The notes under the pieces are model-generated. The model was not told where the DNA came from. It did no database searches and saw nothing but the letters and a program-made list of their open reading frames with translations. This document shows, one piece after another, positions 7,962 through 31,639 of a stretch of DNA of 64,000 bases; position 1 is the stretch's first letter, and each line of letters opens with the position of its first letter. The position numbers and the translations under genes are program-made. The DNA is from Mytilus californianus. Taxonomy: Eukaryota. Location of the stretch: assembly GCF_021869535.1 (NCBI RefSeq), contig NW_026262745.1:59210001-59274000 (forward strand). Direction: 5' to 3'.

Positions 7962-7967
7962 TATATT
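7962..7967. other. Target-site duplication TATATT (left copy)
   Basis: TATATT immediately precedes AGTAGTATG; identical hexamer at 26428-26433. Confidence 0.97.
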
Positions 7968-8479
7968 AGTAGTATGAAATGGGGTCAGTCCCCCACAATT
8001 CCCCCACAGGAAGCCACGTCACAGCTAATCCTCTTAACTATGACGTAGTATCCGGTCTATAATCTCTTAATCCTCTTAACTGCTACTTAACATCCGGGTT
8101 ATAATCCTCTTAACTGAAGTGGATTAATCTCTTAATCCTCTTAACTGCTACTTAACATCCTGGTTATAATCCTCTTAACTGAAGTGGATTAATCTCTTAA
8201 TCTTCTTAACTTGTACTTAACATCCTGGTTATAATCCTCTTAACTGAAGTAGATTAATCTTGTAATCCTCTTAACTTGTACTTAACATCCTGGTTATAAT
8301 CCTCTTAACTGAAGTAGATTAATCTTGTAATCCTCTTAACTGCTACTTAACATCCTGGTTAAAATCCGGTGGTGGAAAATTAACGGAAGTGTTTTTAATC
8401 CCCCTACCCTCCTACGTATGATCTTGTAAACGTGGTATACACGTTGACCTATCCACGTTTACATCCTGAAGTATAATCT
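7968..8479 (+). repeat. Left terminal inverted repeat, 512 bp
   Basis: Line-by-line comparison with the reverse complement of 25916-26427 showed no mismatch. Confidence 0.97.
8058..8362 (+). repeat. 65-bp tandem array (~4.5 units) inside the TIR; mirrored at 26033-26337
   Basis: CATCC anchor recurs at 8091, 8156, 8221, 8286, 8351; each unit has two TAATCCTCTTAACT-like subrepeats. Confidence 0.95.
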
Positions 8480-8521
8480 TGTAAACGTTACACACACGTT
8501 GACCTATCCACGTTTACATCC
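8421..8521 (+). repeat. 55-bp direct repeat (x2) at the inner left TIR border, upstream of polB
   Basis: ATCTTGTAAACG..ACACGTTGACCTATCCACGTTTACATCC at 8421 and 8476; the second copy lies mostly outside the TIR and has no right-end counterpart; TATA-like TATATAA at ~8527 follows. Confidence 0.85.
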
Positions 8522-8567
8522 CTTAGTATATAATGCAATGTGAACTAGTATCAATCATTCATTCAAT

Positions 8568-11500
8568 ATGGAAAATTATAACCATCACATGATTGACCAA
8601 CTGGTAAAAGTTATTCCACAAGATGTGTTACAGAAGTTACAACAGCTGTCAGCGCAGGACTTTAATGCAGTCTTACATTCAGTTAAACAACATAATCCAA
8701 CAGAAAAACAACTTGATAAAACTCCTACAGGAAAAGATGACAATGTAACAGATAAAGATAATGTATCAAATTTTAAGTGCCGAACATGCGGTAAGAAGTA
8801 TGCAAGAAAAGATCATTTAATTCGACACCAACACAACCATTCGAATATAAATTATGAATGTGAACATTGTGGTTTCACCACGAAAAGGAAAGATGTTTTA
8901 TCTACACATATGCAGGGAAAACATAATGTAAAGAAAAGAGCACAGAAGGAAGACAATGTACAACCCCCACGTAAACGTCAGAGGACAGAAGATGTTGACC
9001 AACCTCTCGAGGAACGAGTACGCAATGCAAGAGAGAAAAGATCGTTAACAACAACAGCTCTGAACGATGGTGTGGAAAATATTCAATTACAACCCAGCAA
9101 CAATGAAGAAAGATATGACTTGATGTTATTTTTCAAAGAAAAACAAGTGGATATTGTGCAAATATTAGAGGACAGGCTACTTAGAAATAATATAAAGTTT
9201 TATTTGAGTGTACATGTTAGAATGATTAAATATTCACCAGATGGAAAATACGACGAAGCTGAGCCGCATTTCAATAGTAAAGTGTGTACCATTTTACAAT
9301 CTGGTGCTAGTGAAATACCTCACGAGTTGAATAAAGGATTTCAAAAAGTATTCATTTCTTTCGAAGAATTCATCAAGAATGGGAGTGGATGGCAACTTGA
9401 AGAGGTTTTACAGCTCGATCTGTGCGTCACAAAGTACAAACCGTTAAAAGGAGGTAGTTATTTGGAACTACCAACATCACTTAAAAGATCGAACTGTATA
9501 CTCAACATTCAGAACTTGGACAACAAATGTTTTTTATGGACTGTTCTTTCAAGTATGCATAACTTTCAACGAAATCCAGAAAATGTAGAGAATTATGTTC
9601 CATTTGTTAACTCGGTTAACATGACTGGTATCGAGTATCCAACTCCGTTATCTCAAATATCACAATTCGAAAAACAGAATAACACTATCTCAGTTAACAT
9701 TTTTGGATACGAAGAAGGAGAAATCTACCCGTTATACATCACTAAGAAAACCTACTGTCATCATGTGAATATGTTATATTTAAAAGAAAACAACAAAAGT
9801 CATTATGTGTTGATAAACAACTTTAACAGGTTTTTATCGAGAACAAAGAAACATCGTGAAGAACATTTTTTTTGTTATCTTTGTTTGCAAGGATTTACTG
9901 ATAAATGCAAACTAGAGATGCATAAAGCAGACTGTGGAAAATTTGATTTTCAAAAAATTACACTTCCCAAGGAGGGTGAGGTTCTGGAATTCAAAGAATA
10001 TGCAAAAACCGCCCGAATTCCGTTTGTAATCTATGCTGATTTTGAGTGTTTAACACGGAAAGTCGATACTTGTCATCCGAATCCCAACACGTCAAGTACA
10101 ACTACATACCAACAAATGGAACCTTATAGTTTTGGTTATCAAAGAGTGTCAATTGATAAGCGATACGAAAAACCACCCGTTATATACCGTGGACCTGATG
10201 TTGTGGAGAACTTTATCCGTCATCTTCTTGAAGAAGAGAAAGAAATTAAAGACATACTAAGCCGCATCGAGCCAATGATAGTAACTGAGTATGATAAATT
10301 AGACTACAAATATGCCAAAAAATGTAAAAAAACCTTCAGCAGCAAAAATTACAAAGTCAAGGACCATGACCACGTTTCGGGGTCAATTCGTGGAATTTCG
10401 TGTAATAACTGTAATTTACAGATCAAAATACCGAAATTTATACCTATTGTTATTCATAATTTGAAAGGATTTGATGCAAATCTCATCATGAGTAAAATAG
10501 GAAAGTTTAAGGAACAAGACATCACTGTTATTCCACACAACAAAGAAAAATATATGTCATTTTCTATAGGAAATCTCCGTTTTATTGATTCTTTGCAATT
10601 TTTAAACAGTTCACTGGCAACTTTAACAAAAAACCTAGCTGACGAAGGAAAAAAACATTTTAAATACTTATCTAAAAGTTTTCCGGATCCAGATGTATTT
10701 TCTCTATTGCTACGAAAAGGAGTATTCCCCTATGATTATGTTGATACCGAGCAGAAATTGGAAAAACCTTGTTTACCATCCAAAGAAGATTTTTTTAACA
10801 AATTAGGAGACACTCACATATCTGATGAAGATTATCAATTTGCGCAAACAGTGTGGGACAAACTGAAAGTAAAAACATTAGGGGAATACTCCGATGTGTA
10901 TCTTAAAATGGATGTTGCTCTTTTGACGGATGTTTTTGAAAAATTTAGATACATTTCTTTGCACGACTATGATTTGGATCCGTGTCATTATTTCACCACC
11001 CCCGGATTTAGTTGGAGTGCCATGTTGAAGAAAACTGGAATTGTACTCGATTTAATCAGCGATATAGATATGATGTTGTTTATAGAGAAGGGAATAAGAG
11101 GTGGTGTATCTAGTATTTTTCATAGATATGCTAAAGCAAACAATCCATACTTATTCGATACGTATGAACCAACTGAATCTACTTCCTATTTATCTTATTT
11201 AGACGCAAACAATTTATATGGTTGGAGCATGTCTCAATGTCTTCCGTATGGTCACTTCAACTGGCTTACCGAGGAGGAGAAAATAAAATTAGATATCACA
11301 AAATTAAAAGTTGACGGTTCAGACGGATACATTTTCGAAGTTGACCTTGAATATCCATCGTCACTTCATTCTTCTCATTCCGATTTTCCTTTAGCTCCAG
11401 AAAGAAAACATATTCAAGTAGAACATTTATCTCCATATTCAAAGGAATTATTGCAATATTTAACTGGAAAGCAATGTTTGACAAAGATAGAAAAACTCGT

Positions 11501-12068
11501 TCCTAACCTATACGATAAGGAAAAATACATAGTGCATTATAGAAACTTACAACTATACGTAGAGTTAGGAATGAAGATCAAAAAGATACACAGAGTACTC
11601 AAGTTTAAACAAAGTCCCTGGTTGAAGAAGTACATAGACTTTAACACAGAAAAAAGGAAAAATGCAAAGAATGAATTTGAGAAATGTTTATATAAGCTGT
11701 TGAATAATTCAATTTTTGGTCGGACCCTCCTCAATACACGCAAGCATAAAGATGTGAAACTTTGTCACACGGAAGAGAAACTTAATAAAGAAACAGCTAA
11801 ACCATCCTACGCATCTTGCAAAATATTTAACGAAAATTTGGTAGCAGTGGAGAAAAAACGTGTGAATGTTTTAATGAAACAACCAATATACGTAGGTTTT
11901 TGCATTTTAGACTTATCCAAGTTTTTGATGTATGATTTTCATTATAACCATATGAAATCTCTGTATGGTGATAAAATTCGTGTGTGTTTTTCCGATACTG
12001 ATAGCTTTTTATATCACGTTGAAACGGAAGATGTGTATGAAGATATGCATCATTATCAAGATATTTAA
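8568..12068 (+). CDS. polB: Protein-primed family B DNA polymerase with N-terminal C2H2 zinc fingers and an endonuclease VII-like insert; ends at a premature TAA
   Basis: ExoI FVIYADFEC, ExoII IHNLKGFD, motif A YLDANNLYG, motif B KLLNNSIFG, motif C SDTDS; two C2H2 fingers at 8772-8924; DHDHVSGSIRGISCNNCN at ~10362-10415. Confidence 0.96.
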   Translation: MENYNHHMIDQLVKVIPQDVLQKLQQLSAQDFNAVLHSVKQHNPTEKQLDKTPTGKDDNVTDKDNVSNFKCRTCGKKYARKDHLIRHQHNHSNINYECEHCGFTTKRKDVLSTHMQGKHNVKKRAQKEDNVQPPRKRQRTEDVDQPLEERVRNAREKRSLTTTALNDGVENIQLQPSNNEERYDLMLFFKEKQVDIVQILEDRLLRNNIKFYLSVHVRMIKYSPDGKYDEAEPHFNSKVCTILQSGASEIPHELNKGFQKVFISFEEFIKNGSGWQLEEVLQLDLCVTKYKPLKGGSYLELPTSLKRSNCILNIQNLDNKCFLWTVLSSMHNFQRNPENVENYVPFVNSVNMTGIEYPTPLSQISQFEKQNNTISVNIFGYEEGEIYPLYITKKTYCHHVNMLYLKENNKSHYVLINNFNRFLSRTKKHREEHFFCYLCLQGFTDKCKLEMHKADCGKFDFQKITLPKEGEVLEFKEYAKTARIPFVIYADFECLTRKVDTCHPNPNTSSTTTYQQMEPYSFGYQRVSIDKRYEKPPVIYRGPDVVENFIRHLLEEEKEIKDILSRIEPMIVTEYDKLDYKYAKKCKKTFSSKNYKVKDHDHVSGSIRGISCNNCNLQIKIPKFIPIVIHNLKGFDANLIMSKIGKFKEQDITVIPHNKEKYMSFSIGNLRFIDSLQFLNSSLATLTKNLADEGKKHFKYLSKSFPDPDVFSLLLRKGVFPYDYVDTEQKLEKPCLPSKEDFFNKLGDTHISDEDYQFAQTVWDKLKVKTLGEYSDVYLKMDVALLTDVFEKFRYISLHDYDLDPCHYFTTPGFSWSAMLKKTGIVLDLISDIDMMLFIEKGIRGGVSSIFHRYAKANNPYLFDTYEPTESTSYLSYLDANNLYGWSMSQCLPYGHFNWLTEEEKIKLDITKLKVDGSDGYIFEVDLEYPSSLHSSHSDFPLAPERKHIQVEHLSPYSKELLQYLTGKQCLTKIEKLVPNLYDKEKYIVHYRNLQLYVELGMKIKKIHRVLKFKQSPWLKKYIDFNTEKRKNAKNEFEKCLYKLLNNSIFGRTLLNTRKHKDVKLCHTEEKLNKETAKPSYASCKIFNENLVAVEKKRVNVLMKQPIYVGFCILDLSKFLMYDFHYNHMKSLYGDKIRVCFSDTDSFLYHVETEDVYEDMHHYQDI

Positions 12069-12460
12069 GATACGAGTGATTATCCTCCAGAACATTTTTT
12101 ACATGACACCGAAAATAAAAAAGTAATAGGTAAATTCAAGGATGAAACAAGTGGAATCCCAATAAGTGAATTTGTTGGACTGAGATCGAAGATGTATTCA
12201 TTTTCTTTTGAAGGTGGAGAAAAGCATACTGCAAAAGGAGTAACAAAAACTGCATCCAGAAACTTAAACATGAAATGTACAAAAATTGCCTTTTCGATAA
12301 AACTGTTACACGTTCTGAAATGAATATAATAAGAAGCGAAAGCCATGTTTTATATACTAAAACTATTAATAAAAAATCATTTGTTCCTTTTGATGATAAA
12401 AGATGGATTTTAAATGATGGTGTGACAACGAGAGCCTTTGGACATAAAGACAACATATAA
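12069..12460 (+). pseudogene. polB: Disconnected C-terminal part of pPolB
   Basis: In frame after the TAA: DTSDYPPEH..KVIGKFKDE..EFVGLRSKMYS..AKGV; a -1 shift at ~12266-12269 (TTAAACATG) leads into KHEMYKNCLF..PFDDKRWIL..TRAFGH. Confidence 0.92.
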
Positions 12461-12980
12461 ACAAATGACATTTTTTTTATCATGTAAAACGTTCAAGTCT
12501 TATATGTTATTTTCTATTTGTTTTAACTATTTCGTATTTTTATTATTATTTTTGTTCATTTTTTTTTCTATATCAAAATTTGGGGTGATTAAAATAATAA
12601 TTAAACATTTAGCGAGGGAAACTATTATTTGTTCATTTGAGGGTTATTGTGTATATGTATTTTATTTTTTGTTTGTTTGTTTTCTTTTTGTCAAATGTGT
12701 ATTAATAACTAGAGCAAAGTGGGAATTTTTTTTTTTGGATATCAAAAATTTGTGGTGATTTAAATACGATTGTTACATATAGTGAAGGAGAATGTAGATG
12801 CATCATATTTTTATTATAATTTATTGTATATTGTATTCGATAGTATTTATTCAGTTTATTATTTTGTGTATGACAAAATTTGTTTGTGGGTAATTTAGTT
12901 ACTTTTTTCTTGTAATTTACTTTTACATCTATGTTTTATTTATTCCTGTTTTTTTTTTTTTTCGCATCCTATCTGATTGA

Positions 12981-13028
12981 AATAAAACATAAAATATCAA
13001 TGAATCCAGTTGTTTGTTTTCGTTTATT
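12981..13028. terminator. Convergent polyadenylation signals between polB and the major capsid gene
   Basis: AATAAA on + at 12981-12986 and TTTATT (AATAAA on -) at 13023-13028 in a T-rich spacer. Confidence 0.5.
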
Positions 13029-13124
13029 TGAATATATTGTAGTAAAACACACATTATAAAAAAAGATAGATATACACAATAAACAAACAGTCATAGTCAT
13101 GATTTTACAATTTACATGGAAATG

Positions 13125-14438
13125 TTAGTGTTCAATCTTTATTTGTCGATTCTCGGTTATTTCAAAGTATCCATAGTTTTCAGCTAAAATCAGTAAGGCA
13201 GCTGTTTCTGGTAATGGAGTACCGAACTGACATTCCAATCGTATTTTCCCCTGCTTCAGTAGTGAAAGATATTTGGTATCCGAAAAGAATGGTTCTAAGT
13301 TGAAGCATAGAAGCGTATATCCATTGTTGAATTCAGCCCTTGTTATTTCATTCCCCGTATCCAACATCCACTTTCCTCCTGTTTCAAACATTTTTACATA
13401 AGGAGAAACGTTCGATGCACCGCTATTCTCGTTGAAATCAAGTTTGAGTGGTATACCATCAACTGGTATTCCGTCACAAAACAGAGTCACCTGTTTTAAA
13501 TCATAATTCTTAAAGTTAAATGGGTTTTTTGTATATGCTCCAGACATAGCATTTGAAGAAACCAATCCAAGCACAATACTTTTCGGTCTCGCATCTTGGA
13601 AAACATTTTCTACGATTAACGAAGTACTTCCTTGCATTATTGTAAAATTTTTCATCATGGTTTTTGTGAAAGGATACTTAGCATTTGTTGTCTTTAAAGC
13701 TTCTGAATGAGCGACAATTATAGCTGGGTTAGGTCTGATCTTACAAAGCTTTATCACGACATCTTCCAAAGAAATATGATAGTTAGTTTCAATTTCTCCA
13801 GACATCAAACAAAAACTTGGATCGTTGCGGTATAATTTTAGTTTAAGGGATAACATATTTAGCAGGTATCTATCCATCTCAAAGATATCAGAAAAAACTG
13901 GTCCCTCCATTTCTAATGTTTTCGAATTAGAAATAAATTTTCTGCGTTCATACAGTCCAGTGTTAGTAGATATTTCATCCATGTGACCATACCTGTCTTT
14001 TAAGTACAGACTAGAAGATAATTGTGTGCTCTTTGCGTCTTGGCCATACTGCAGTAATGTTTTCATCATACATTTATACGGGTAATACGTATTACTAGAC
14101 GTTACCATTTGTCCTTGTATATAAACATCCAATTGCGACCAAAGCGATTGTAAAAATAAGTTCACAGGTCCTACCGTATCGCCATCTTGTAAATCTTCAC
14201 CATTTGCTTTTTTCACTTTTAATTTCACGTATAGTTTCGATCTTTTAAGATCTATATAATCCATACCATTGTTTGCACATAGATCGAATTCTATAGGATT
14301 GTAAGCTGTTATTTGACTAACAGGTCTGCATTCCTCGTATGTTATACTTTCAACACCGACTTGATATGGAGGTATCTCAAAAATCTGTAACTCTGACGGT
14401 TGTGCTTCAATAAAATTCTCTTTAGTTAACAAAGACAT
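13125..14438 (-). CDS. Maverick major capsid protein (double jelly-roll), 437 aa
   Basis: N-terminal SELQIF..PP.Q..ESITYEECRP..PIEF..DYIDL..LYVKLKV and later RPKSIVLGLV, NPFNF motifs match Polinton MCP as I recall them; size and synteny fit. Confidence 0.9.
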   Translation of the reverse strand: MSLLTKENFIEAQPSELQIFEIPPYQVGVESITYEECRPVSQITAYNPIEFDLCANNGMDYIDLKRSKLYVKLKVKKANGEDLQDGDTVGPVNLFLQSLWSQLDVYIQGQMVTSSNTYYPYKCMMKTLLQYGQDAKSTQLSSSLYLKDRYGHMDEISTNTGLYERRKFISNSKTLEMEGPVFSDIFEMDRYLLNMLSLKLKLYRNDPSFCLMSGEIETNYHISLEDVVIKLCKIRPNPAIIVAHSEALKTTNAKYPFTKTMMKNFTIMQGSTSLIVENVFQDARPKSIVLGLVSSNAMSGAYTKNPFNFKNYDLKQVTLFCDGIPVDGIPLKLDFNENSGASNVSPYVKMFETGGKWMLDTGNEITRAEFNNGYTLLCFNLEPFFSDTKYLSLLKQGKIRLECQFGTPLPETAALLILAENYGYFEITENRQIKIEH

Positions 14439-14839
14439 TATGTTGAAAATATATCCCTTTTATGTTTTTTAACAGTTTTATCTTTTTTCGATTTTTTCGT
14501 CTTCTTTTCACCTCCTCTGCTTTGTGGCGAATGATGATTTTTTCGCTTTCTTTTCTTTTTATTTATACTCTCACCGTCATTTTTTATCTCTTCTTTTGCT
14601 TGATTAACAATTTGTTCACTAGGCGACACTAACCGTACCTCAAAGTTTTTTTCTTTTTCAACACGAATTGGATAAGATTTATTCGAAATTGGAATCATAA
14701 ACGATCCCGATTGCGATCCTTTATTATGTCCATTTTTCATATGAGCTACGTAAGCGTTCGATTGACCAGAAATTACATTCTGATAATATCTAGACCATAG
14801 ATCAACATTAGGAATGTACATTTTATCAATGTTCGACAT
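14438..14839 (-). CDS. Basic Lys/Arg-tailed protein, 133 aa (candidate virion core/DNA-condensing protein)
   Basis: Intact ORF between minor and major capsid genes; C-terminal KKKRKRK..KKTKKSKKDKTVKKHKR; stop overlaps the MCP ATG. Function is inference. Confidence 0.7.
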   Translation of the reverse strand: MSNIDKMYIPNVDLWSRYYQNVISGQSNAYVAHMKNGHNKGSQSGSFMIPISNKSYPIRVEKEKNFEVRLVSPSEQIVNQAKEEIKNDGESINKKKRKRKNHHSPQSRGGEKKTKKSKKDKTVKKHKRDIFST

Positions 14840-14846
14840 ATCTACG

Positions 14847-15272
14847 CTAAAATACGCTTGGTATAAATTGTAGTGTAAAAGACAAATTATTTTTCAAAAA
14901 TGAAGCGTTTTCTCCGTGTTCATCTTTTATAAGAAATTCTAAGACTTGAATTTCGTTTTTCTTTACCGGTAAATAAATTGGAGACGAAAATAAATAATTC
15001 CATGTATTCATATCCGTGGGAAATATTCTTCGTAAAAGTGAATATTGTATATGGGGAAAAACATTCACTCCACTACATACATCACAAAACAAGTATAATT
15101 GATGATTGTTCTTTTTTGTAACTTTTTGATTAGAGTAAAAATCTAATATTCCTAGTTTCCATTCACCTTGTAATTGTAAAACTTCATTTAAACACACTTT
15201 GAACTTGAACGGTGAATTATTAGGGTAATATGCATCAGATTGATCACTTCGAATGAAAATTATATGTTCCAT
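14847..15272 (-). CDS. Minor capsid (penton-like single jelly-roll) protein, 141 aa
   Basis: S..YYPNNSPFKFKV.L...L.L.GEWKLGI and LYLFCDV..LLRRIF..Y.PV..EFLIKDEHG..F..FTLQF motifs of Polinton minor capsid. Confidence 0.85.
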   Translation of the reverse strand: MEHIIFIRSDQSDAYYPNNSPFKFKVCLNEVLQLQGEWKLGILDFYSNQKVTKKNNHQLYLFCDVCSGVNVFPHIQYSLLRRIFPTDMNTWNYLFSSPIYLPVKKNEIQVLEFLIKDEHGENASFLKNNLSFTLQFIPSVF

Positions 15273-16408
15273 TATGATAAAGATTGAATCTGTTCTTCTG
15301 GTATGTATTCGTCATACGAAGGAGGCCACCCTTGAAAACGAACTAAGTATTCAGTTTTTCCTCGTCTTTTTCGCTTCTTTAAAATTTTTTCAATTATCCA
15401 AAGACTATTTTCGTCTTTGTCTACTCTTTGAAGTTCACTATCATAAAAGGTTCCCCTTATGAATTCGTCTCCATTTATATTTGAAACCCTGTAAAGATCA
15501 ATATTTTGTTGTCTGAATCTTTGTACTACTTTGAATATCTCTTCCGTCCATCTTTGACTATACGATCGATCAAAAATATGAGCAATATTTGAGAGTCGAA
15601 CTAAAGAACCGATTTTGTATTTGTATTGTTTTTTTCTCTTTTTCTTTTTGTTTGTTTGTACTTTTATTTCTTTCATTTTTTTCTCTGTTTCACTTAAATA
15701 CATTTTCCCCCAGATATCACTCTCGTTGTCTGAATTAACGTCTTTAGGTGCAATGTTTTGTAAACTTCTATGAGGAGTATCATTATAGCTTTTTGCAAAA
15801 TTTTGCAAGTTGTTAATATATCTATGTGTTCTGTTCTTTGTGAAAAGGCGAAACATTTTATTCTTTATAGTTTGTAAGACTCTTTCAGCATAATTTGCGT
15901 GAAGTTCATTTTGAGCCGAAAAATGGCGGACACCATTCCTTTTAAATAATGACTGTGTCTTTTTGGCTAGAAATTCTTGTCCCTTATCTGTTCGAATTTT
16001 TTCCGGTTTTACCTCACTAAAAATCTTTTTAAATGCAGAGGTGACTTCATCTCCCGTTTTATTTTTCAATGGTTGTAACCAAAGATAGCGTGAGAAACAG
16101 TCAACAACAACTAACACGTATTTGTAATTTTCATTTTCTTGTGAAAATTGTTTAAGATCCATTAAATCGGCGTCCCATAAATTATTCAACCCCGTGGTAT
16201 ACACTCTTATTCTTTTAAAAGAACGACGAGGTGTTTTTTGTAAACTGTAATTATCTTGTGAATTCAACCACCGTTTAATTTGATGTCTACCAACTTTATT
16301 CCCATCTGCATTTACGATATGATACAGTTTTTCGGTAGAAGCATATGAAGCTGGTCCACCAACATCATAATAGTATTTACTTAGGAGAGTATCTAGTTCC
16401 TCATTCAT
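15272..16408 (-). CDS. int: Retroviral-type (rve) integrase with C-terminal chromodomain, 378 aa from the ATG at 16408
   Basis: WDADLMD, VVVDCFSRYLW, IRTDKGQEF, AERVLQTIK, YNDTPHRSL; chromodomain WIIEKILKKR..EYLVRFQGWP..DEYIPEE. Confidence 0.96.
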   Translation of the reverse strand: MNEELDTLLSKYYYDVGGPASYASTEKLYHIVNADGNKVGRHQIKRWLNSQDNYSLQKTPRRSFKRIRVYTTGLNNLWDADLMDLKQFSQENENYKYVLVVVDCFSRYLWLQPLKNKTGDEVTSAFKKIFSEVKPEKIRTDKGQEFLAKKTQSLFKRNGVRHFSAQNELHANYAERVLQTIKNKMFRLFTKNRTHRYINNLQNFAKSYNDTPHRSLQNIAPKDVNSDNESDIWGKMYLSETEKKMKEIKVQTNKKKKRKKQYKYKIGSLVRLSNIAHIFDRSYSQRWTEEIFKVVQRFRQQNIDLYRVSNINGDEFIRGTFYDSELQRVDKDENSLWIIEKILKKRKRRGKTEYLVRFQGWPPSYDEYIPEEQIQSLS

Positions 16409-16864
16409 ACTTAACTCAATTTGAACTGAATGTATATCTCGCAAATTAGTTTTAAGTAAAGTTTCACATATGAATCGGATTAGAGGTAAAAAAGATGGGG
16501 GGGGGGGGGGGGGGGGGGGTGGAAAAAAACAAAAAAAAAGTGTTTCAATAACTGAAATTAGTTTGTGTTTTGATTTAAGATATAAAAAAAGTTAAGAAAA
16601 AAAAAAAAACTTTTCATTAAGGAATGTAAATATTTGCATCTTTTTCATTTCTATTCGATTCTTATATAAATCTCTACCTAAAAACAATACCACTACATCA
16701 ATAAATAAGAAATACAAAAAAAAAAATATGTTTACATAATTTATTATAAAATCTATCACAAAAATAATGATGATGTCCTTTAAATATTGTCTGTCATTCA
16801 ATTCCATCTTTTATTCATTTCATTCCATCTTTTAATCATTCCGATCCATCTTTTATTCGAATGC

Positions 16865-19800
16865 TTAATGGTCTATTTCCATATTCTGTAAAACACAACA
16901 AAATTATTTAGTCAAAAATCATCACTTTACCAAGAATCAACACTATAGTATTATATTTAAATCACGTGACATTTTACATGACATAATCGGAAAAAGAAAG
17001 AAAAAAATGGTCGCCATGTTGCTTTTGAGTTTGTTATTTTGCTTTCAAAGTGTTGTAAATGTAGGAGCTGTACATATATCATCTTGCTACAGAGTTGAAG
17101 ATTTTATAGATTGTTCGAGGGAAACAGAAGAGAGCTTTCAGGGAGAGGTAGCAGATGACGTTTTAAACATTCGCTTCAACCATATACAGAGCAAACATCA
17201 AATTGAAGATGTTAAATTTACGAAGCATGTTATCATAATGTTGGAAGAATCTTTGAATTTGTGTGATGATATTAATCATAAACTGATGATGGTAGACGGG
17301 AAAATGTGTACAGTAAGTCTACATTCATTTTATTTGAATGGTAAAAATATAACACAATAAAAAAATTTGCATACATGAATATTCATGAAAGACTTCAAGT
17401 TATATTTCAATCACGTGATAAGTAAACATTTCTAGAAATAATATGAATCTCCTCGGTTGTCGAGTATAGTAGATCAGTGAATGAAATATCTAAATTACAA
17501 CATGGTTAAACTTCAACCGTTATTAATAACGATGACTGTCTTCATAACGGAGTTTATATACTTTATTCCTCATCTAATAAGAAGTCTATTCATCTTCCCA
17601 GTTATTTCTCTTTCTCTTATAAGAGTATACATGCATATTCTACTTCTAAACTCATAACTTACATCATTTTCAACATCGGAAGTGATGTCTATCATTTTTC
17701 TCTTCTTGTTCTGTAGAATAAAAAGTATCATCATTAGCTATAATGTATTAAACATTTATATATATAAAAAAAAAACAACCTTGGAAGTAAGGTATTAAAA
17801 ACATCTTTGTTTTCATTTACTCGTTTTTTTTATTTGCTTTACAATTATTTGTTTATTGGATGAATCTGGTTTTTTTCTCCTTTCTTTTTATTACTTATTA
17901 CCAAAAATCAAGATGTACTTACTAATGATGGTTTCGCGTCTACATTTTGACTCCCTCTGGGCTGACTCATGTTGGTTAAATCAAGCTGTTGAATAGAAAT
18001 TTATAAAAAAAACTTTTAAACATTTACACATGATAAAAAAAAAACAATAAAGCATGCAATGGATATTTTATTATTTTTTTTTTTTTTTACTTTAACCCTT
18101 TCTTAATAATATTGTTAACATTGTATAAATTGTATTACTTATAATGAGTTAAATCTATACATACACAGTAAGGATCTTTTTCGTCATCTTTTGTTAAGTC
18201 TATCATCTACAAAATAAACATGTATAGCTTTAAAATAAGAATATACAATCTTTTATGATGAAAATTAACTTTACACATATACTTTTAAATTGACATATTA
18301 ATTTTCTGAAAGCTCATATATACATGTATATATATTATTAATGTTATAAGCAATATAAAATTTATAAATAATACATATGGAGTTTAAAACCGATTTGCAA
18401 CTTATAATGAGTTAAATCTATACATACACAGTAAGGATCTTTTTCTACATCTTTTGTTAAGTCTATCATCTACAAAATAAACATGTATAGCTTTAAAAAA
18501 AGAATATACAATCTTTTATGATGAAAATTAACTTTACACATATACTTTAAATTGACATATTAATTTTCTGAAAGCTGATATTTACAAGCAATACTAAATT
18601 TATAATTAATTCATATGGAGTTGAAAACAGATTTGCTAATCTATATATAGTTTTCATTCATTAAAATGAATGAATATGCATACTTACTATGATATCTTGG
18701 GGGTTGCTTCTCTCCTGCATCTGTAAAATAAAAGAATTTATATATACTTTTTTTTAATAGATTACTGAATCAACTAATTCTTTCGCTGAGTCAAGTTGGA
18801 GTATTGACGATGAACTAATAACAGATACAGGTAATTTTCTTTTTTTTTTCTTTGTCTTTTTATTGAAATGATAACTAATTTCCTCCTCAGTGAGAATGAA
18901 TACTTTAATAAATCAGAAACTTGTATAAAGGAATCTTTTCTGTTTTTTCCTGTAACTGTAATCTTAATGTAAAATACTTTTATTTTCATGTAATAAGAAA
19001 TCTCAAAGAACCCTATCCTATCATTTTAAAGATATTATATTTTTTTTTTTTTTGTATTTATTTACAGTGACATTTTCAAACAGTAAAGATGAGGGAGAAA
19101 TTACTACATTAGAAATTCTTGGATGTAAGTATTTTTAGTTTTGAAATTATAAATATAAATTTCTATTAATCACGTTGATAAAAAGTGTAATGTGTACACA
19201 TCATATGTATAACAATTGTATTTATATTATTTGAAATATAAAAAATGTGATATCGTGTAATGAGATTGAGAAAACTCTTCGTTAATCGCTTTGGGTGTAA
19301 GAAAAGAAGAAAAATAGATTTAAGTGAACTACTTGTGAAAATCATGTATTTTCATGCAAAAAAAAAAATTACTTTTCAGATGTGGAAAATACAGAGGGAA
19401 ACGATAATGAAATTTATGTTATATTATTAGGTGTACTCTCATTTGTTTGTATATTTATAATTTTTGTTTTTATGATATTGTATAGGAAACATATATGTTT
19501 TAAATGTTATAGTCATAATATTCTTCCTTCACACGTAGACACAGTTTCACTTAGAAGAATGTCTAGCATTACTTCATTGACAAGTGATAATGAAATTGTG
19601 TTTTCGTGTGAAATGGAACGAAAATGTAAGTAAGATTTTTTTTTATATTAATTAGGTTAGCTTTATTCACAGTTAAACTTCTTTTTATTTCAGATATTTT
19701 GTCATCCTTTACAGTAATTATATTAGGACTTATCCCTATGAGGCAGAGTGTCAAAGACTTGCTAATACATTCTATACAAAAGATTTTTACAATGGCTATT

Positions 19801-20180
19801 AATAGAAATTTGAACTATAATACATTTATCAATCTTTTATATCAGTTACTTAATTATATTTTTCATTATTTTATTCAGAAAAGAAAACCTTTACGTAGGA
19901 GCAACAGACGTCGTGTTGCTCCAAATAGATTAATGTATAATCAGTTTTGAGTTTTGAAATATTATAGTGTACACACTCAATTCTAGTTTCATGGATAAAT
20001 TTTTACTTTCCTACTATTTCAAAAGTTATTAAAGTATTCATTGGAATTAAACCAAAAACAAAAATCTATTCTTTTTAAACTGTGAAAAAAACTTACCTTA
20101 ATATCTTGAACCAATGACGACAGCTGTAACAGACATTTCTCAATCATAACTATTTTGATGAGGTTCTTATTTGAATTCAT
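16865..20180 (-). CDS. Predicted 5-exon 82-aa protein antisense to the membrane gene; exons 20180-20097, 18720-18688, 17985-17923, 17710-17663, 16885-16865
   Basis: All four donors GTAAGT, all acceptors CAG after pyrimidine tracts, all exons multiples of 3 (84, 33, 63, 48, 21 nt), no internal stop, AATAAA just after the TAA. Confidence 0.72.
17007..19950 (+). CDS. Predicted 6-exon type I membrane protein (~256 aa) inside the Maverick; exons 17007-17312, 18761-18830, 19068-19124, 19380-19625, 19694-19713, 19879-19950
   Basis: All introns GT-AG with pyrimidine tracts; phases 0,1,1,1,0 give a continuous ORF: signal peptide, 4-Cys ectodomain, S/T/acidic stalk, TM IYVILLGVLSFVCIFIIFVFMILY followed by RK. 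Last two exons less certain (alternative stop at 19633). Confidence 0.78.
17525..17632 (-). pseudogene. Degenerate paralogue of the 25528-25836 ORF
   Basis: MYTLIREREITGK vs MYTLLRERELTGK (11/13 identical); after a frame change MRNKVYKLRYED vs IRNRVDKLHHEE. Confidence 0.65.
18137..18640. repeat. 263-bp tandem duplication (~1.9 copies), intronic for both spliced genes
   Basis: ACTTATAATGAGTTAAATCTATACATACACAGTAAGG at 18137 and 18400. Confidence 0.9.
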
Positions 20181-20659
20181 TTTTTTCTTCTTTTTTTTTC
20201 TTTTACAGTTTGCAACTTATTAACATATGATTATCAAACAAGTGTTAAGGTGTATTTATTAGTACTTCACATCCTGGATTAAGTGAATGGGAGGGGTATA
20301 AGGAATTATCTATACAAAGGGTGGAATAATGGAGATGTTTTTTTTTTTAATCCTCATTTTTTTTCATATATCAATTATCTAATCTCTTTGTATTTGAAAG
20401 AAACAATACAAGTTGTTATTTGTAGGTGGGGTCTGATTTTATTTACTCAATCTTTCATTTGCTGTTGTGAAAAAACACCTCATAGTTTATTATGATAAAA
20501 GATTAAATTATTGTTTGAAAGAAAGGTGATTGATTGATTAGAAATACCCCCTCCCTCATTTGTTTACACTTTTAGTCAATTAATTTTTGAGAATTAAATT
20601 GTCTGAAGACTATTAACTTGGAAAGTTTTTCATACATCTATATAATTAACAAGTTTGTT

Positions 20660-21125
20660 GTATAGTGCTATAAAAAAAAAAAGATATATAATATCACTAA
20701 TTCAATGATAATGAACTCCTCACCCCTTTATTAAAACATAAGGTTGTCTCCCTTTAAGGTTGTGTGCTTTTTTCTATTTAATCTTGAAATAGTAATATGT
20801 TACTCAGGGAAAACAAGTTTTTTTATATAGTTATGTAATATACATGTTGTTTTTTTTTTCTTTTCTGTATAGTGTTATAAACAAGATATATGATATCTAT
20901 ATTGCAATGATAATTAACTACTCAATCATTTTATTAACACATAAAGTTGTCTCCCTTTAAGGTTGTGTGCTTTTTTCTATTTAAACTTGCAATAGTAATA
21001 TGTTACTCAGGGAAAACATTTTTTTATATAGTTATGTAATATACATGTTTTTTTTTTCTTTCTTTTTTGTATAGTGCTATAAAAGAAAGATATATGATGT
21101 CAATAATGTATCAATAATTAACTTC
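20660..21125. repeat. ~200-bp tandem duplication (~2.3 copies) in the Maverick AT-rich spacer
   Basis: GTTGTCTCCCTTTAAGGTTGTGTGCTTTTTTCTATTTAA at ~20744 and ~20946. Confidence 0.88.
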
Positions 21126-21975
21126 TCAAACTGATAAATTTTTTTTTTGTGTGTGTGTGCGTCTAATTTACTGTTTTAAAACTAAATTATAAATGTGTGT
21201 AAAAAAAAAAAAAATGATAGAGTTTATCTTCTTTTTTACTTTTTATAATACACAATGTTGGAAAGATATATCTTGTTTGTATATGTAAAGTTATGTAAAT
21301 ATGTTACACCCAACCAGTAAAGTTTATGTTTATTGATAGTGTTGCATTTTAAAAATGTTCTTATGTGATATGTTATTACAATCATGGTGCACTTTAAAAA
21401 CATATTTGTCTTTAAAGAATTTTTTTGTATATATGTTACTTTTAATATAAAAACATTGTTATATGCTATGTAAAACCCAAAATAATAGTACTAATGTATT
21501 TTTAAAAATTAAAAAATATTTAATTGATGAAATTTATTATAATTTAGACTGGAAAAAATAAAACTTTTATTTTCACTTTGCAAATTCATAAAGTATACCA
21601 CCATACAGTATTTTTTATATTAATAAAATAAGTTGATAACAATTATACTTTTGTTTATCTCATTGTTTTTGTTAGTAGTTAATCTTCACTGCAGAGAAAC
21701 ACATACTTTCAGGATATTGTGAGCTCTTAATTGGTGGTGATTTCAATGTTATAAAATTTTTACTTTTCCTTTATTTGCTATTGCTAAGAATTAGTCTATG
21801 CTTTAAGGAAGTTGTCTGGAAAAGGGATTTCATTGATTGACATCATCACATCATTAAACAAACAAAAAATAACCATCTTAGTCTGATAGTTAAAATGAAT
21901 AATCAACACAAACCATTATTCTATATTTATTAGCATACAATAAAAAAAAAAAAAAAAAAAACATTAGAAAGGATA

Positions 21976-22578
21976 TTACAATTTGAATCTTTTCCATTTA
22001 AGTTTAGGTTTGTCATCAAGCAGTCTTGAAAGTTCTCTTTTTACACAAAGTTTATTGTTATTTGTCTGTTTTTTCTTTTTTCTAACGTGTTCACTTTCAG
22101 CTAATAGTTCATTTTTCAGTGTTGTAGTTGTATCCGATTGAAACAGTTGTCTTCTCATTCTATTTGAAATAAATCCCATAGGTATGTGGATCGTTTTAAG
22201 AAAATTATAAAAATGTATATATCCATTAGGTGGATGTTTGCATCCATATGGAATGACAACATCCCGCAATAAGTCAACAATATGAGTGTTTGGTATAGTT
22301 TCGTTGTTAATATGAATTTCTCCTCGTTTGTTCCAACTAATTAATGGTTGAGTCTGAAGAAAGTTCAATAGTTGTTTCCCCTTCTCTCTATATTTCACTG
22401 GTATGGTCAGCTCGATTAAAGTGTTCAATTCATGGTCAGAATTTTCATTTTTGGTTATTAATTCCTCCTTTGGTGAAAATTCTTCCTTAGAACAAGTTTG
22501 TTTGCTGCTTTCATTGTTTTCTGTTTGTACTATACTTTCATATCTATGTTTTGGAAGAAGAATCATTTCTCTTGTCAT
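21976..22578 (-). CDS. Maverick-associated hypothetical protein (~200 aa)
   Basis: Intact ORF with ISWNKRGEI..NETIPNTHIVDLL motif that I recall from Maverick ORFs; first ATG at 22578; overlaps the upstream ORF. Confidence 0.75.
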   Translation of the reverse strand: MTREMILLPKHRYESIVQTENNESSKQTCSKEEFSPKEELITKNENSDHELNTLIELTIPVKYREKGKQLLNFLQTQPLISWNKRGEIHINNETIPNTHIVDLLRDVVIPYGCKHPPNGYIHFYNFLKTIHIPMGFISNRMRRQLFQSDTTTTLKNELLAESEHVRKKKKQTNNNKLCVKRELSRLLDDKPKLKWKRFKL

Positions 22579-22888
22579 TTTTAATTGTTTCAAGTATTGG
22601 TTTTACAATAATAGGAATAATGTTATGATATTTCAGAAACAATTTTTTTCTCTGAATACGTGATGTCTCTCTGTGTGTTATTTTCCGAATGATACTTTTA
22701 TATTTCATAAGTTTCTTTTTAACTGATCGGCTAAGATGAAATACCCCCCATAACACATTTAAAAAACACTCAACTAAAAGTTGAAATTGTTTGTCGTTCA
22801 TAGTCTTCAACAATGCAATTTTCTGTTCTTCGTCATATGTAATTAAAAGCGATAAAAAATGTACATGGGCTAAAACTTGTTTACTCAT
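22544..22888 (-). CDS. Short helical basic Maverick protein (114 aa; possibly the PM-type core ORF)
   Basis: LVECFLNVLWGVFHLS..KKKL.KYK.IIRKI motif; ATGA overlap with the ATPase stop. The PM label is tentative. Confidence 0.7.
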   Translation of the reverse strand: MSKQVLAHVHFLSLLITYDEEQKIALLKTMNDKQFQLLVECFLNVLWGVFHLSRSVKKKLMKYKSIIRKITHRETSRIQRKKLFLKYHNIIPIIVKPILETIKNDKRNDSSSKT

Positions 22889-23550
22889 TTTGGAACAAAA
22901 ATTACTGGATCTTCTCCTTTGAAAATTTTTGTTCTCAATAAATATGTTTTATCTGTATGCGTTGACAAATCGATAATCAAATAACCAAACCTACTACAAA
23001 CTGCCTTTTCATAAGCTGACATGAAATAGTTTAATTGACCTGGGAGAATCTGTCTTCCTAAAACTGATAACTGGTGTTTGTCACGTTGGTTTTTTAGACA
23101 TATTATGTATGTTGCGTTTAACGAAATAGTACGTATGCATTTTCCAGGAGGGAAAAGATTTTGCATAAGAAACAAAACTGTTATATTACAATGATGAGAT
23201 TTGACGGTAAAAAGATTTAATACATCACTAGAGTTTGAAGCTTGACATAATAAATCATCAAGACAAAGAATCATATGTTCTTTATTTTCTGACCATTTAT
23301 CAATTTCCTCACTGGATGGTAAACCTTCGTGAAAAGTTATGTTTCTAACTTTTTTTTCCATCTCTGAAAACAAATTCTGATATGCAGAGTAACAATAAAT
23401 GGTTTTCTTTGGTGTTTTGGTAAATAGGTATTCAGATTGAGCCAGGATTTTATATGTAAGCATGGTTTTTCCTGACTGAGTAGGTCCAACTATTTGTATA
23501 CAACACGGTGATTGAAACGGCAAAAGCACTTTCTCCGTGTCTTCACACAT
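22885..23550 (-). CDS. FtsK/HerA (A32-like) genome-packaging ATPase, 221 aa
   Basis: Walker A GPTQSGKT, Walker B ILCLDD, FTVKSHH.NITV.FLMQNLF, RTISLNATY, YLIIDL. Confidence 0.95.
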   Translation of the reverse strand: MCEDTEKVLLPFQSPCCIQIVGPTQSGKTMLTYKILAQSEYLFTKTPKKTIYCYSAYQNLFSEMEKKVRNITFHEGLPSSEEIDKWSENKEHMILCLDDLLCQASNSSDVLNLFTVKSHHCNITVLFLMQNLFPPGKCIRTISLNATYIICLKNQRDKHQLSVLGRQILPGQLNYFMSAYEKAVCSRFGYLIIDLSTHTDKTYLLRTKIFKGEDPVIFVPK

Positions 23551-23852
23551 TTTTGTTTGTTTGTTGTCTAAACCTTAATTGACTTATGGATTGTGATTTA
23601 TTTTTCAAGGTATTTGTTTGTTTTATATACTGTTATTTCTAACTTGTTTTAGTTTTTTTTATTTGAGAAAGAAAATACACCACCAGAAAGAAAAAAAAAG
23701 AATCAAAATACATCACCAGAAAAAAAAGAATCAAAATACTACAACTGAAAAAAAAAAAGAACCAAGTACACAATAAAGTGCAACAAATGAAGTAAAATAC
23801 GGATGCAACCTAATGATTCCGGAATAAAAAGGCGGATATTAACGAACGATTC

Positions 23853-23935
23853 CGGAAATGATCGGAAATGACTTTACATTCGGAAATAAACGAATGTTTC
23901 CGACTACTACCGGAAATAAATATACATACGGAAAT
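23853..23935. promoter_or_regulatory. Cluster of five CGGAAAT motifs upstream of the ATPase gene block
   Basis: CGGAAAT at 23853, 23863, 23881, 23911, 23929 in otherwise CpG-poor DNA; the regulatory role is inferred. Confidence 0.5.
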
Positions 23936-24107
23936 AAACGAATGATTACGAATACAATCGAAATGATATAAACGAACATGAAGTCATTTCTAATCTTTAC
24001 CAGAAATATAATTTTTTCATTAAAAAATAAATACACAACGAAAAAATTTCATATCAGTATACTAATTTATTCAATGAAATATACATGTATTTATATATAA
24101 TACAATC

Positions 24108-24512
24108 TTATTGTGTGAAACGTTCTTCAAGTTTTACTTTCCTTTCCATTAAATTATAAACAGTCTCTTTCATTTTTTGTGATCGAAGTGTATCAAGGAA
24201 CAACACATGAAGAATGAAAAAGTTTAAAACGACACTATTTTCCAAGTTCAATGTTCTCACATTTTCTCTGTACTTTCCTAGTATGTGACTGTATTTAAAT
24301 TCACAATACGCCTGTTCAAAATGTTTTTCAAGTTTATCCAGTTCACTATCCATCAAACAATCGTGTCTATGTTGTGATCCATGTTCAACTTTGCATCCCT
24401 GGCAAAACTTCTTTGATAATTGTTGCACCATTTCTTCTAATAATTCAGCAAAAGAAAACAATAATATAGTTGAAAGTAGCCTTTTTCCCATACCGTCTTT
24501 AATGTCCACCAT
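24108..24512 (-). CDS. Accessory protein with CxxC..HxSQxxHxC putative zinc-binding motif, 134 aa
   Basis: FCQGCKVEHGSQHRHDCL; intact ORF 7 nt downstream of the previous stop. Confidence 0.75.
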   Translation of the reverse strand: MVDIKDGMGKRLLSTILLFSFAELLEEMVQQLSKKFCQGCKVEHGSQHRHDCLMDSELDKLEKHFEQAYCEFKYSHILGKYRENVRTLNLENSVVLNFFILHVLFLDTLRSQKMKETVYNLMERKVKLEERFTQ

Positions 24513-24519
24513 TATATTA

Positions 24520-24780
24520 TCAGTGTTCGTCTATAAATGAATAAAGAAATAAGATGCTTTCCTTTAGATTACACAGTTTTGTCCAATTTTCTTTACTGAT
24601 CAGAATCTTTTTCCCTTTTATAACAAGCTGTAATCGGGTATGTTTTCCTCTTTTCTTCACCACCACTTTTATCGTTTCATCAATTAAACATTCAATCTGT
24701 TTCTTGAATAAATCAGTATGCAAATGTTCAAAGTCACAACCGTACACCTCCTTAGATAAATCAACCTGTGCCTGTGCCAT
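24520..24780 (-). CDS. Small accessory protein, 86 aa (weakly PC4-like)
   Basis: Intact ORF; KKILISKENWTKLCNLKESI resembles the PC4 C-terminal strand-helix pattern; similarity is weak. Confidence 0.55.
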   Translation of the reverse strand: MAQAQVDLSKEVYGCDFEHLHTDLFKKQIECLIDETIKVVVKKRGKHTRLQLVIKGKKILISKENWTKLCNLKESILFLYSFIDEH

Positions 24781-24943
24781 TGATATAATTGTGTACTTTT
24801 ATAGTTGTGGTCGCGGATTAAATTGTTCATAATGATTCATAAAAAGATTAACGAAACGTATAGTAAACGTTTCAGTCACGTGAGGGGGAGGAGGGTCACT
24901 AAAACACTCCTTTTTTCCTCCTTTCTTTTAATATGAATATCAT

Positions 24944-25174
24944 TTATATTTTATTTATAGAGGGGTTTGGTAAAATGTAACCAGTACAACCACTTAACAA
25001 ACTAACCCATAGTTCTATACTTCCATTTTGTGTTGACAAATTAACAACTGCTGCAATAACAATTATGAAAACTATTATCATCTGACAAAAATACACGATC
25101 TCTGCTTTTGGTACATTCTGCCCGAAAAAACACCACTTTGTTTGAGGGTTTTCTGTGCTCATTCTCTCTAACAT
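24944..25174 (-). CDS. Small two-TM membrane protein, 76 aa
   Basis: Hydrophobic segments IVYFCQMIIVFIIVIAAVVNL and LWVSLLSGCTGYILPNP. Confidence 0.75.
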   Translation of the reverse strand: MLERMSTENPQTKWCFFGQNVPKAEIVYFCQMIIVFIIVIAAVVNLSTQNGSIELWVSLLSGCTGYILPNPSINKI

Positions 25175-25527
25175 TTCAACTTAAATGATTTTTTTTTTTC
25201 ATATACACAAAAATATATATCTATATTTTATAGGAGAATTTCATTAAGAAGGTGTAATTTCCAATTTTCAATATGAAAACTTTTGTTATCATAATGCTGT
25301 TTTAGTTGAAATAATGTGTGTTTATCAATCGAAAGTAATAAAATATATAATCTAGTTTTCTTTTCTTCGAAAATAAACGAGTTGTGAACCTTTTGTAAAT
25401 ATTTCATAATCGTTGGAGAAGAAAATCGAACTGATCATGTACAACAATAAAATACTCTTTTTGAATGATTTGTTGGTCCTAAAAAGGACCGTTGTACGCA
25501 TGTAAATGATATACATGGATTTTTTTT

Positions 25528-25836
25528 TTATTGGTAGTTGACAGGATCCATAAACTTGTAGTCTGCTAACACTGCATCAAAGTAACAACCACAAAAATAA
25601 AGATCTTCAATAAACTCTGGGTGGTGTTCAAAGTTGTATAGAATACAAACAATGTAACCGTTTTTTAGAAGCCATGTTTCTACTGGACACCGAGATAGTT
25701 CTTCATGATGAAGTTTATCAACCCTGTTCCTTATCAAATTTGCAGTCTTTTTTGGACCTCTTCGCGATCGTCTGATCTTTCCTGTCAATTCTCTTTCTCT
25801 TAAAAGTGTATACATATTAAAATTTTGGAGATTCAT
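25528..25836 (-). CDS. Hypothetical protein, 102 aa, first ORF inside the right TIR
   Basis: ATG-initiated intact ORF with TATA-like sequence at ~25873-25879 upstream; has an internal paralogue at 17525-17632. Confidence 0.7.
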   Translation of the reverse strand: MNLQNFNMYTLLRERELTGKIRRSRRGPKKTANLIRNRVDKLHHEELSRCPVETWLLKNGYIVCILYNFEHHPEFIEDLYFCGCYFDAVLADYKFMDPVNYQ

Positions 25837-25915
25837 ATTGTTTGTTCTTATGGAAATACTGTTGATGTATGATATATAGTAAACGTTTTTCTTAGTTTAT
25901 AAACTGATTGCATTC

Positions 25916-26427
25916 AGATTATACTTCAGGATGTAAACGTGGATAGGTCAACGTGTATACCACGTTTACAAGATCATACGTAGGAGGGTAGGGGGATTAA
26001 AAACACTTCCGTTAATTTTCCACCACCGGATTTTAACCAGGATGTTAAGTAGCAGTTAAGAGGATTACAAGATTAATCTACTTCAGTTAAGAGGATTATA
26101 ACCAGGATGTTAAGTACAAGTTAAGAGGATTACAAGATTAATCTACTTCAGTTAAGAGGATTATAACCAGGATGTTAAGTACAAGTTAAGAAGATTAAGA
26201 GATTAATCCACTTCAGTTAAGAGGATTATAACCAGGATGTTAAGTAGCAGTTAAGAGGATTAAGAGATTAATCCACTTCAGTTAAGAGGATTATAACCCG
26301 GATGTTAAGTAGCAGTTAAGAGGATTAAGAGATTATAGACCGGATACTACGTCATAGTTAAGAGGATTAGCTGTGACGTGGCTTCCTGTGGGGGAATTGT
26401 GGGGGACTGACCCCATTTCATACTACT
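25916..26427 (-). repeat. Right terminal inverted repeat, 512 bp
   Basis: Reverse complement of 7968-8479. Confidence 0.97.
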
Positions 26428-26433
26428 TATATT
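26428..26433. other. Target-site duplication TATATT (right copy)
   Basis: TATATT immediately follows CATACTACT; 6-bp TSDs are typical of Maverick rve integrases. Confidence 0.97.
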
Positions 26434-31077: not shown

Positions 31078-31639
31078 CTGAAATACAAATCAAAATTCTT
31101 GTTGGTTTTTTTTAATCTCAAAATTAGTATTAACTTTATTTACTATCACAGGAGCGGCATCGATGTTGATTGCCTCATTATGTACACTCGCTGTCACACA
31201 TTTGGAAGGCATTATATTTGAAATATTCTAGGCATTAAAATAAGTAATGTCCAGTAATGATTTCGCTGAGATCTGTTAAATCAATTTTATGCAGTATGTA
31301 ACTCGTTTTTTTTTTCAAATTATATTTAACGATATAACCATTTTTTACAAATCATATGTAGTTATTATTATTTCAAAATATGTTGCCAATGAAATAGTGT
31401 CACGATTTTTTAGTCAAAGAGAAACCAGCTACAAAAATGTGCTTAGAACACTATAGACTAGACAACACAATCTCAATTGAAACACAAGGAAAGCAAACTT
31501 GTTCTGGTAGTGTAAGAAGATCCTGCTCCTAATGGGGTCCTGTTGTTGAGGATAATTACAATTTTCATATTAAGTCTCATTCGTTCATATCACAATTGAG
31601 GAAAATAAGACAGGGTTGTGGCCACGATAATTCTTACAT

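Follow-up and report, generated by a model that had tools for sequence, protein, structure and literature searches.

The 64,000-nucleotide stretch of Mytilus californianus DNA analyzed here (the window; assembly GCF_021869535.1, contig NW_026262745.1, positions 59,210,001 to 59,274,000) contains an 18.5-kb Maverick (Polinton), which is probably a young copy, unable to replicate itself, of a protease-less Mytilus family that is low in copy number and has been active recently. The element occupies positions 7968-26427 of the window, begins with AG, ends with CT and is bordered on both sides by TATATT. It contains the features that define a Maverick, namely terminal inverted repeats (TIRs), a target-site duplication (TSD), a pPolB polymerase, an integrase, a major capsid protein (MCP) and an ATPase. 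Its ends and core genes are arranged as follows; the names PW, PM and PZ are assigned by synteny with the elements of PMC8097293 only.

7962-7967, plus strand: left TSD, TATATT
7968-8479, plus strand: left TIR, 512 bp, starting with AG
8568-12460, plus strand: pPolB (protein-primed DNA polymerase B), broken, with C2H2 fingers at its N terminus and a domain resembling endonuclease VII
12461-13124, no strand: AT-rich spacer in the slot that holds the protease in relatives, with no protease trace
13125-14438, minus strand: MCP, 437 residues, double jelly roll
14438-14839, minus strand: basic protein of 133 residues, putative PW by synteny
14847-15272, minus strand: minor capsid (penton) candidate, 141 residues, by synteny and 32-37% identity
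15272-16408, minus strand: integrase (rve) with a C-terminal chromodomain, 378 residues
21976-22578, minus strand: conserved open reading frame (ORF) of 200 residues, putative PZ by synteny
22544-22888, minus strand: conserved ORF of 114 residues, putative PM by synteny
22885-23550, minus strand: packaging-type ATPase, 221 residues, with Walker A and B motifs
25916-26427, minus strand: right TIR, 512 bp, ending with CT
26428-26433, plus strand: right TSD, TATATT

The original prediction, made from the letters of the window, had reported 512-bp TIRs without mismatch and a perfect TATATT TSD, and an end-to-end comparison bears this out: there are 0 mismatches over 512 bases and base 513 is the first mismatch (one inverted-repeat measure gives 517, as the TSD is partly palindromic). 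Each TIR contains two tandem arrays (a 65-bp unit repeated 4.7 times and a 55-bp unit repeated 1.9 times), and a 6-bp TSD would match by chance with a probability of about 5e-4. No host transposable element had been recognized inside, which agrees with the absence of blastn matches between the interior and the remainder of the window and with the absence of a high-copy depth spike inside the element in the contigs of three DNA runs (X1, X5 and X7); in the same runs the left flank shows a spike about 100-fold higher than the interior. Mavericks are copied as linear, protein-primed molecules with freshly matched TIRs and are inserted by an rve integrase, which generates a 6-bp duplication. In the present case, a linear copy would have been inserted by the rve integrase with duplication of TATATT.

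The MCP, minor capsid, ATPase and integrase ORFs (437, 141, 221 and 378 residues) are uninterrupted, as originally reported. The structural model of the MCP (AlphaFold2, pLDDT 85.9) matches the double jelly rolls of Sputnik (the best match; Foldseek E 1.2e-16, TMq 0.63), an iridovirus and PBCV-1, and its sequence is 97-99% identical to M. edulis models. The integrase matches rve (E 2.7e-14) and chromo (E 4.4e-8) and retains its D-D-E motifs, and the ATPase is 40-48% identical to syntenic ATPases. The 141-residue ORF is without a Pfam match and is a minor capsid (penton) candidate by its position and its 32-37% identity to the syntenic ORFs of relatives. Between the window and its closest relative (L001 of the related loci L001-L020; 93% DNA identity), dN/dS is 0.049 for the MCP, 0.088 for the integrase, 0.12 for the penton and 0.28 for the 133-residue ORF, values from which purifying selection on the integrase and, strongly, on the capsid of the family is read. 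Scans of viral contigs with the MCP, two MCP alignments and the integrase found no relatives.

The pPolB gene, which starts 89 nt inside the left TIR and in which exonuclease and polymerase motifs are recognized, is about 95% (94.6%) identical to M. edulis models and 42-62% identical to others, and it is broken at three places. In comparison with five homologues, three residues (9 bases) are missing in frame around residue 585, not far from the cysteine-rich domain of endonuclease VII type; a stop codon occupies 12066-12068; and past it the same frame is still recognizable by coding similarity as far as about 12255-12266, from where the similarity runs on in another frame to 12457. Approximately 131 C-terminal residues, including the KxKDE, GLRxKxY and KG motifs, lie past the stop. 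Because of these three lesions, the copy cannot replicate itself and is not autonomous. On the other hand, the M. edulis annotation contains two PolB models of 1300 residues; therefore, the family retains whole polymerases. At the site of the stop codon, the aligned contigs of X1, X5 and X7 all differ from the window, and the stop either belongs to this copy alone or was introduced by the assembly, a comparison that is not decisive because contigs lose rare variants such as one present in one copy in ten. It is conceivable, but quite improbable in our judgment, that all three lesions are assembly or polishing errors and that the copy is fully autonomous and very recent, as the original prediction implied. 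The behavior of the stop site in the three runs would fit such errors, and frameshifts are a usual error of long reads. Read errors do not, however, typically take the form of a 9-base gap in frame or of a stop made by substitution, there are 18 further private sites, long frames remain open elsewhere in the element, and the loss of a one-in-ten variant from contigs would leave the same pattern at the stop.

The age of the insertion is bounded by its ends. With 0 differences in 512 bases, the divergence of the TIRs is at most 0.59%, which corresponds to an upper bound of 0.3-1.5 million years at an assumed rate, not a measured one, of 2-10e-9 changes per site per year. "Young" here means up to roughly a million years, and does not mean ongoing. 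The window differs from the long contig pieces seen by 0.44% (X1), 0.62% (X7) and 2.05% (X5). Inside the element, a hand count among 40 of 695 differences gave at least 19 private sites, at which all aligned contigs of the three runs differ from the window. Thirteen of these, distributed over six ORFs, were analyzed (excluded were the site of the stop codon, a single one past the frameshift and four that lie outside these six ORFs): seven fall on non-degenerate positions and eight change a residue, compared with 27% at the family level (P ~0.01), which fits the neutral expectation. The private differences read as unselected decay or error rather than selected divergence. The insertion had been called very recent; recent activity of the family is upheld by the identical TIRs, the near-identical contigs of the three DNA runs, the MCP and PolB models of M. 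edulis and the purifying selection on capsid and integrase, while "very" is an overstatement in view of the 0.59% bound, the private differences and the pPolB lesions.

If the whole internal distance of 0.44-0.62% had arisen after insertion, identical TIRs would be expected with P 0.002-0.011. This tension may be relieved by supposing that the pPolB lesions predate the insertion, such that a non-autonomous copy was replicated in trans and inserted very recently, with the TIRs reset and the internal decay kept. Identical TIRs beside an internal distance of 0.1-0.6% would follow from such a history, as would the confinement of all three lesions to the gene most readily complemented in trans, with the remaining core genes uninterrupted. 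We nevertheless regard it as unlikely: the stop is absent from the aligned contigs of all three runs, no defective subfamily is visible, and at the lower-bound divergence of 0.11% the identity of the TIRs (P 0.33) needs no special explanation. The opposite proposal, that the insertion is old and fixed and that its TIRs are identical through gene conversion or assembly collapse, is very improbable. The three lesions and the occurrence of the family in several Mytilus species would be in keeping with it; against it, contigs of 512 and 527 bases show 0 differences to the interior, seven further core ORFs have remained uninterrupted, the 18.5 kb are free of host repeats, and the TSD is perfect.

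The family to which the copy belongs is low-copy and recently active in Mytilus. It covers 30 of 30 bins in the three DNA runs, which come from three studies. In X5, the single-contig depth is 164-395 inside the element and 31.6 in the right flank, giving roughly 5-12 copies, as far as depth, which is not strictly copy number, can be converted. In M. edulis, at least eight full-length MCP models of 437 residues, 97-98% identical, were found among 15 of 21 cluster members listed, and these eight sit on eight contigs that differ in length. In a 6% sample of the RNA run X21, 86 reads aligned, 61 of them only in part; the first mates lie on one strand only over the five bins from MCP to integrase and on the other strand over the first two pPolB bins, and the sample contained no splice joints or transcript ends. 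These strands fit the sense of the genes for the usual stranded library, with about ten read pairs, of which any copy may be the source. Polymorphism of the insertion, as originally proposed, is plausible; no empty-site joint was present among 15 of 96 joints, the left flank being a very high-copy repeat. Cross-species transfer within Mytilus is not claimed, as the dS of 0.18-0.34 to L001 lacks a host-gene baseline. A literature search that covered neither Repbase, most subscription papers nor bioRxiv supplements found nothing on this Maverick family.

The absence of a protease is the second characteristic of the copy and appears to extend to its family. In seven relatives (L002, L006, L007, L008, L019, L020 and L028, the last a more distant Maverick), the protease gene begins at the MCP stop, and two of four proteases tested match Peptidase_C5, weakly. 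A hidden Markov model (HMM) built from four of these proteases (leave-one-out controls 1e-15 to 1e-23) matched 12 of the 20 related loci and also L028, and in the window it reached a best E of only 0.93, although a gene split by introns or a very divergent one would be harder to see. No remnant was found by Pfam in 49 small frames of the element. The best tblastn hit with the four proteases (E 0.026) was antisense within the integrase and was rejected. Besides L001, seven other loci are protease-negative, most of which end within or just after the MCP. In L001, the 195 nt past the MCP align to the spacer of the window and hold no protease. In M. edulis, four pairs of MCP and PolB models have consecutive accession numbers, a numbering that suggests that no gene lies between them. 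It thus appears that the maturation protease has been lost in the family while the capsid is still selected. The missing protease weakens the case for virion formation, which the original prediction had held possible. The description of the insertion as full-length holds for its size and ends; it does not hold for its gene content, with pPolB broken at three places and no protease gene. The original prediction had claimed neither of these two genes, and it had pointed out neither defect.

Several observations weigh against a young, dead copy of a protease-less family. Three lesions in pPolB and not a single mismatch in the TIRs sit uneasily together, and pPolB is the sole casualty among the open genes, the others being free of lesions. 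The private differences were drawn from 40 of 695 rows chosen by the tool, in contigs that lose rare variants. The copy number was converted from depth, and the protease is judged absent at the family level from 195 nt of L001 and from accession numbering. A feasible model on the preferred reading may nonetheless be as follows. Since its insertion, at most about a million years ago at the assumed rates, the copy would have drifted without selection and lost its polymerase function, and it could move further only with the polymerase of a sister copy. The family, with its selected MCP, penton and ATPase, probably still packages DNA, in which case maturation of the capsid either would not need cleavage or would employ a protease from elsewhere. 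A low-copy, recently active family without a protease is a system in which to ask whether Maverick capsids need proteolytic maturation, and a defective copy offers little prospect of finding particles.

The 5.5-kb region between PZ and the integrase has a GC content of 25%, compared with 31-33% in the core genes, and harbors a spliced cargo gene together with candidate antisense micro-exons.

17007-19950, plus strand: spliced cargo gene encoding a type I membrane protein (signal peptide, four-cysteine ectodomain, stalk rich in serine, threonine and glutamate, one transmembrane helix)
17663-18720, minus strand: four candidate phase-0 micro-exons (33, 42, 42 and 48 nt), antisense in cargo intron 1

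The cargo exons are placed at about 17007-17312, 18761-18830, 19068-19124 and then either 19380-19630 or 19694-19950, an alternative last exon; the protein of 228 residues is supported by splice sites and hydropathy. The exons are 100% identical to the named M. californianus models P0241 and P0242, which may describe this very locus and are not independent evidence of conservation. Relatives at 28-88% identity occur in M. edulis, M. galloprovincialis, M. coruscus and other contigs (19 matches, among which three repetitive proteins look spurious). In comparison with M. edulis P0246, 46 of 70 residues of the ectodomain and 30 of 36 of the tail are identical, at an MCP identity of 97-98%. Two automated M. 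coruscus models are chimeric: P0243 joins a PZ-like protein (37.5% identical to that of the window) to a cargo piece of 88% identity, and P0260 joins a cargo piece of 29% identity to an integrase of 58% identity. Taken from gene models, these fusions suggest that the cargo occupies the same slot in a sister Maverick family and has been exchanged with it, possibly with inversion.

The ectodomain is modeled confidently (pLDDT 91) and weakly resembles a leucine-rich repeat (LRR) N-cap with two repeats (GPIb: Z 4.9, root-mean-square deviation 3.2, 72 aligned residues); the top structural matches are mostly LRR proteins, none of which reaches Z 5. It has no Pfam match, Foldseek against the PDB and viral libraries gave nothing at E 0.001, a PDB sequence profile search gave nothing relevant, and the best Atlas feature reached 0.84, a low recognition. 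No fusogen was found in the mussel Maverick. At most, the cargo might be a protein of the cell surface or of particles on which selection is relaxed or diversifying, and the AT-rich interval that separates PZ from the integrase may serve as a cargo bay for a fast-evolving spliced surface protein. Two distant Mavericks have ORFs with a signal peptide that resemble the cargo protein in length and in their C-x8-C start (L026:4631-5017 and L027:7325-7702, both minus strand); the cargo HMM finds neither, and homology is not claimed.

Three of the four candidate micro-exons encode IDLT or IDIT followed by acidic residues, a pattern that we take to resemble SUMO-interacting motifs. Two of them arose by a 263-bp tandem duplication, and a candidate fifth was read by eye near 17915-17977. 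Elsewhere in the AT-rich region, about three tandem copies of a 203-bp unit lie at 20645-21129; in X1 and X7, depth within the element is at its minimum in the bin 20538-21204, and the array may vary among copies.

The part worth following lies near the right end, where a stem-loop of the type found in histone 3′ untranslated regions stands past an orphan ORF.

25450-25495, minus strand: histone-type stem-loop with a purine-rich stretch, Rfam RF00032 (Histone3)
25528-25836, minus strand: orphan ORF of 102 residues, not a histone

The stem-loop, the sole Rfam match of the element at the gathering score, scores 35.1 bits, barely above the cut-off of 34 (E 1.9e-6 in a scan of the whole window). 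It comprises a six-pair stem with a four-base loop and is preceded by AAC, the stem starting 37 nt past the stop of the ORF on the same strand, with the purine-rich stretch 12 nt past the stem. A pattern written post hoc occurs 0.007 times per shuffled element; a less strict 16-base pattern that allows one mismatch would turn up by chance 0.3 times per window, and 1.3% of positions fall 20-60 nt past the stop of an ORF of at least 70 residues. Like pPolB at the left end, the ORF begins within a TIR, 80 nt inside the right one, and 15 public contigs carry it without a changed letter; it has no Pfam, PHROG or Atlas match and none in G001, a genome bin in which mobile DNA of eukaryotes is present. 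A segment at 17585-17632 (minus strand) shares 75% identity with the beginning of the ORF over 16 residues and is apparently a degenerate internal paralogue.

In G001, three stem-loop matches, one of them above the cut-off, were obtained among 150 of 989 candidates scored (L024:7528-7573, L025:1507-1553 and L025:10692-10737, all plus strand). All three lie 28-40 nt past ORFs that are not histones, namely a 72-residue cysteine-rich protein, an SGNH hydrolase and a 178-residue protein, in mobile-looking DNA; the gene beside the last is presumably a retroelement. No stem-loop was found in L001-L020 at the gathering score or in the scanned parts of the three distant Mavericks L026-L028; the stem-loop is not general to Mavericks. 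There were no RNA reads over the bin 25207-25873 in the sampled 6% of X21, although such an RNA could escape a poly(A)-based library. A literature search, which did not cover most subscription papers, found no report of a histone-type 3′ end in a Maverick. Such an end is called unique to histone mRNAs (PMC2781718), and the combination of stem-loop and purine-rich element is described in invertebrates (PMC5011920, PMC6210712). As in replication-dependent histone mRNAs, the putative 3′ end combines a stem-loop, AAC and a purine-rich stretch just past the stop codon; unlike in the histone genes, the upstream ORF is not a histone. It is tempting to speculate, though we do so tentatively and from the sequence pattern, that a gene of a Maverick family with a selected capsid and no protease of its own might use the SLBP/U7 histone 3′-end machinery of the host to produce a TIR-driven non-histone protein in S phase, and that other mobile elements of marine invertebrates may do likewise. 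If so, use of a histone 3′ end by a mobile element would couple the expression of transposon or virus genes to S phase.

Between the ATPase and the stem-loop, the element carries further small frames.

24108-24780, minus strand: two small accessory ORFs (134 residues, with a homologue in L007; 86 residues)
24947-25180, minus strand: small hydrophobic ORF, an open frame of 78 residues with one transmembrane segment above threshold

Outside the element, a very high-copy host repeat (7198-7910) lies immediately to the left of the insertion site, and a host gene piece at 29141-31111 (minus strand) encodes an nSTAND3 NTPase (Pfam E 6.7e-26) with ankyrin repeats (3.7e-24). A near-perfect hairpin (32717-32873) and two long inverted-repeat pairs with members about 3 kb apart (48204-51328 and 55583-58985) are probably ends of host DNA transposons. 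Tandem arrays occupy 41674-42441 (147 bp, five copies) and 45551-46225 (75 bp, nine copies). Among the relatives, the three Maverick contigs L019, L020 and L028 belong to G001, which is labeled as the bacterium Sedimenticola, and are likely to be host or viral DNA binned with the symbiont.

The element is of an ordinary kind with two modest twists, and young Mavericks with identical TIRs are already known in many animals. The Mavericks of aquatic animals (Barreat and Katzourakis 2021, PMC8097293) and the adintoviruses (Starrett et al., PMC8502044) share with it the TIRs, the 6-bp TSD, pPolB, the integrase, the syntenic modules INT-mCP-PW-MCP and ATPase-PM-PZ, and strong purifying selection on the core genes; further related literature includes bioRxiv 10.1101/2023.08.22.554363, PMC6431247 and PMC10294476. 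Unlike the intact elements as defined there (PMC8097293), the present copy has no protease past the MCP and its pPolB is broken, so it is not intact and would be classed as defective; it also carries a spliced gene, whereas the intact vertebrate elements have no introns. The cargo slot recalls the nematode Mavericks, in which a poorly conserved region of 2-5 kb beside the integrase holds intron-bearing cargo genes exchanged between elements (bioRxiv 10.1101/2022.07.12.499685). By contrast with the nematode cargo, that of the mussel lies in an AT-rich, internal position between PZ and the integrase and encodes a membrane protein of small size instead of a protease or kinase. Finally, the adenovirus-like protease is typical of Mavericks but not universal, being present in 74% of elements in one survey, where Table S1 lists four of 72 Polintons (Polinton-1_DGr, Polinton-N1_NV, Polinton-N1A_NV and Polinton1_SM) that, like the mussel element, have MCP, penton and ATPase and lack the protease (PMC4028283). 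Unlike in those four, the loss in Mytilus appears to run through a family found in several Mytilus species, in which pPolB copies of full length occur and selection on the capsid has been measured.

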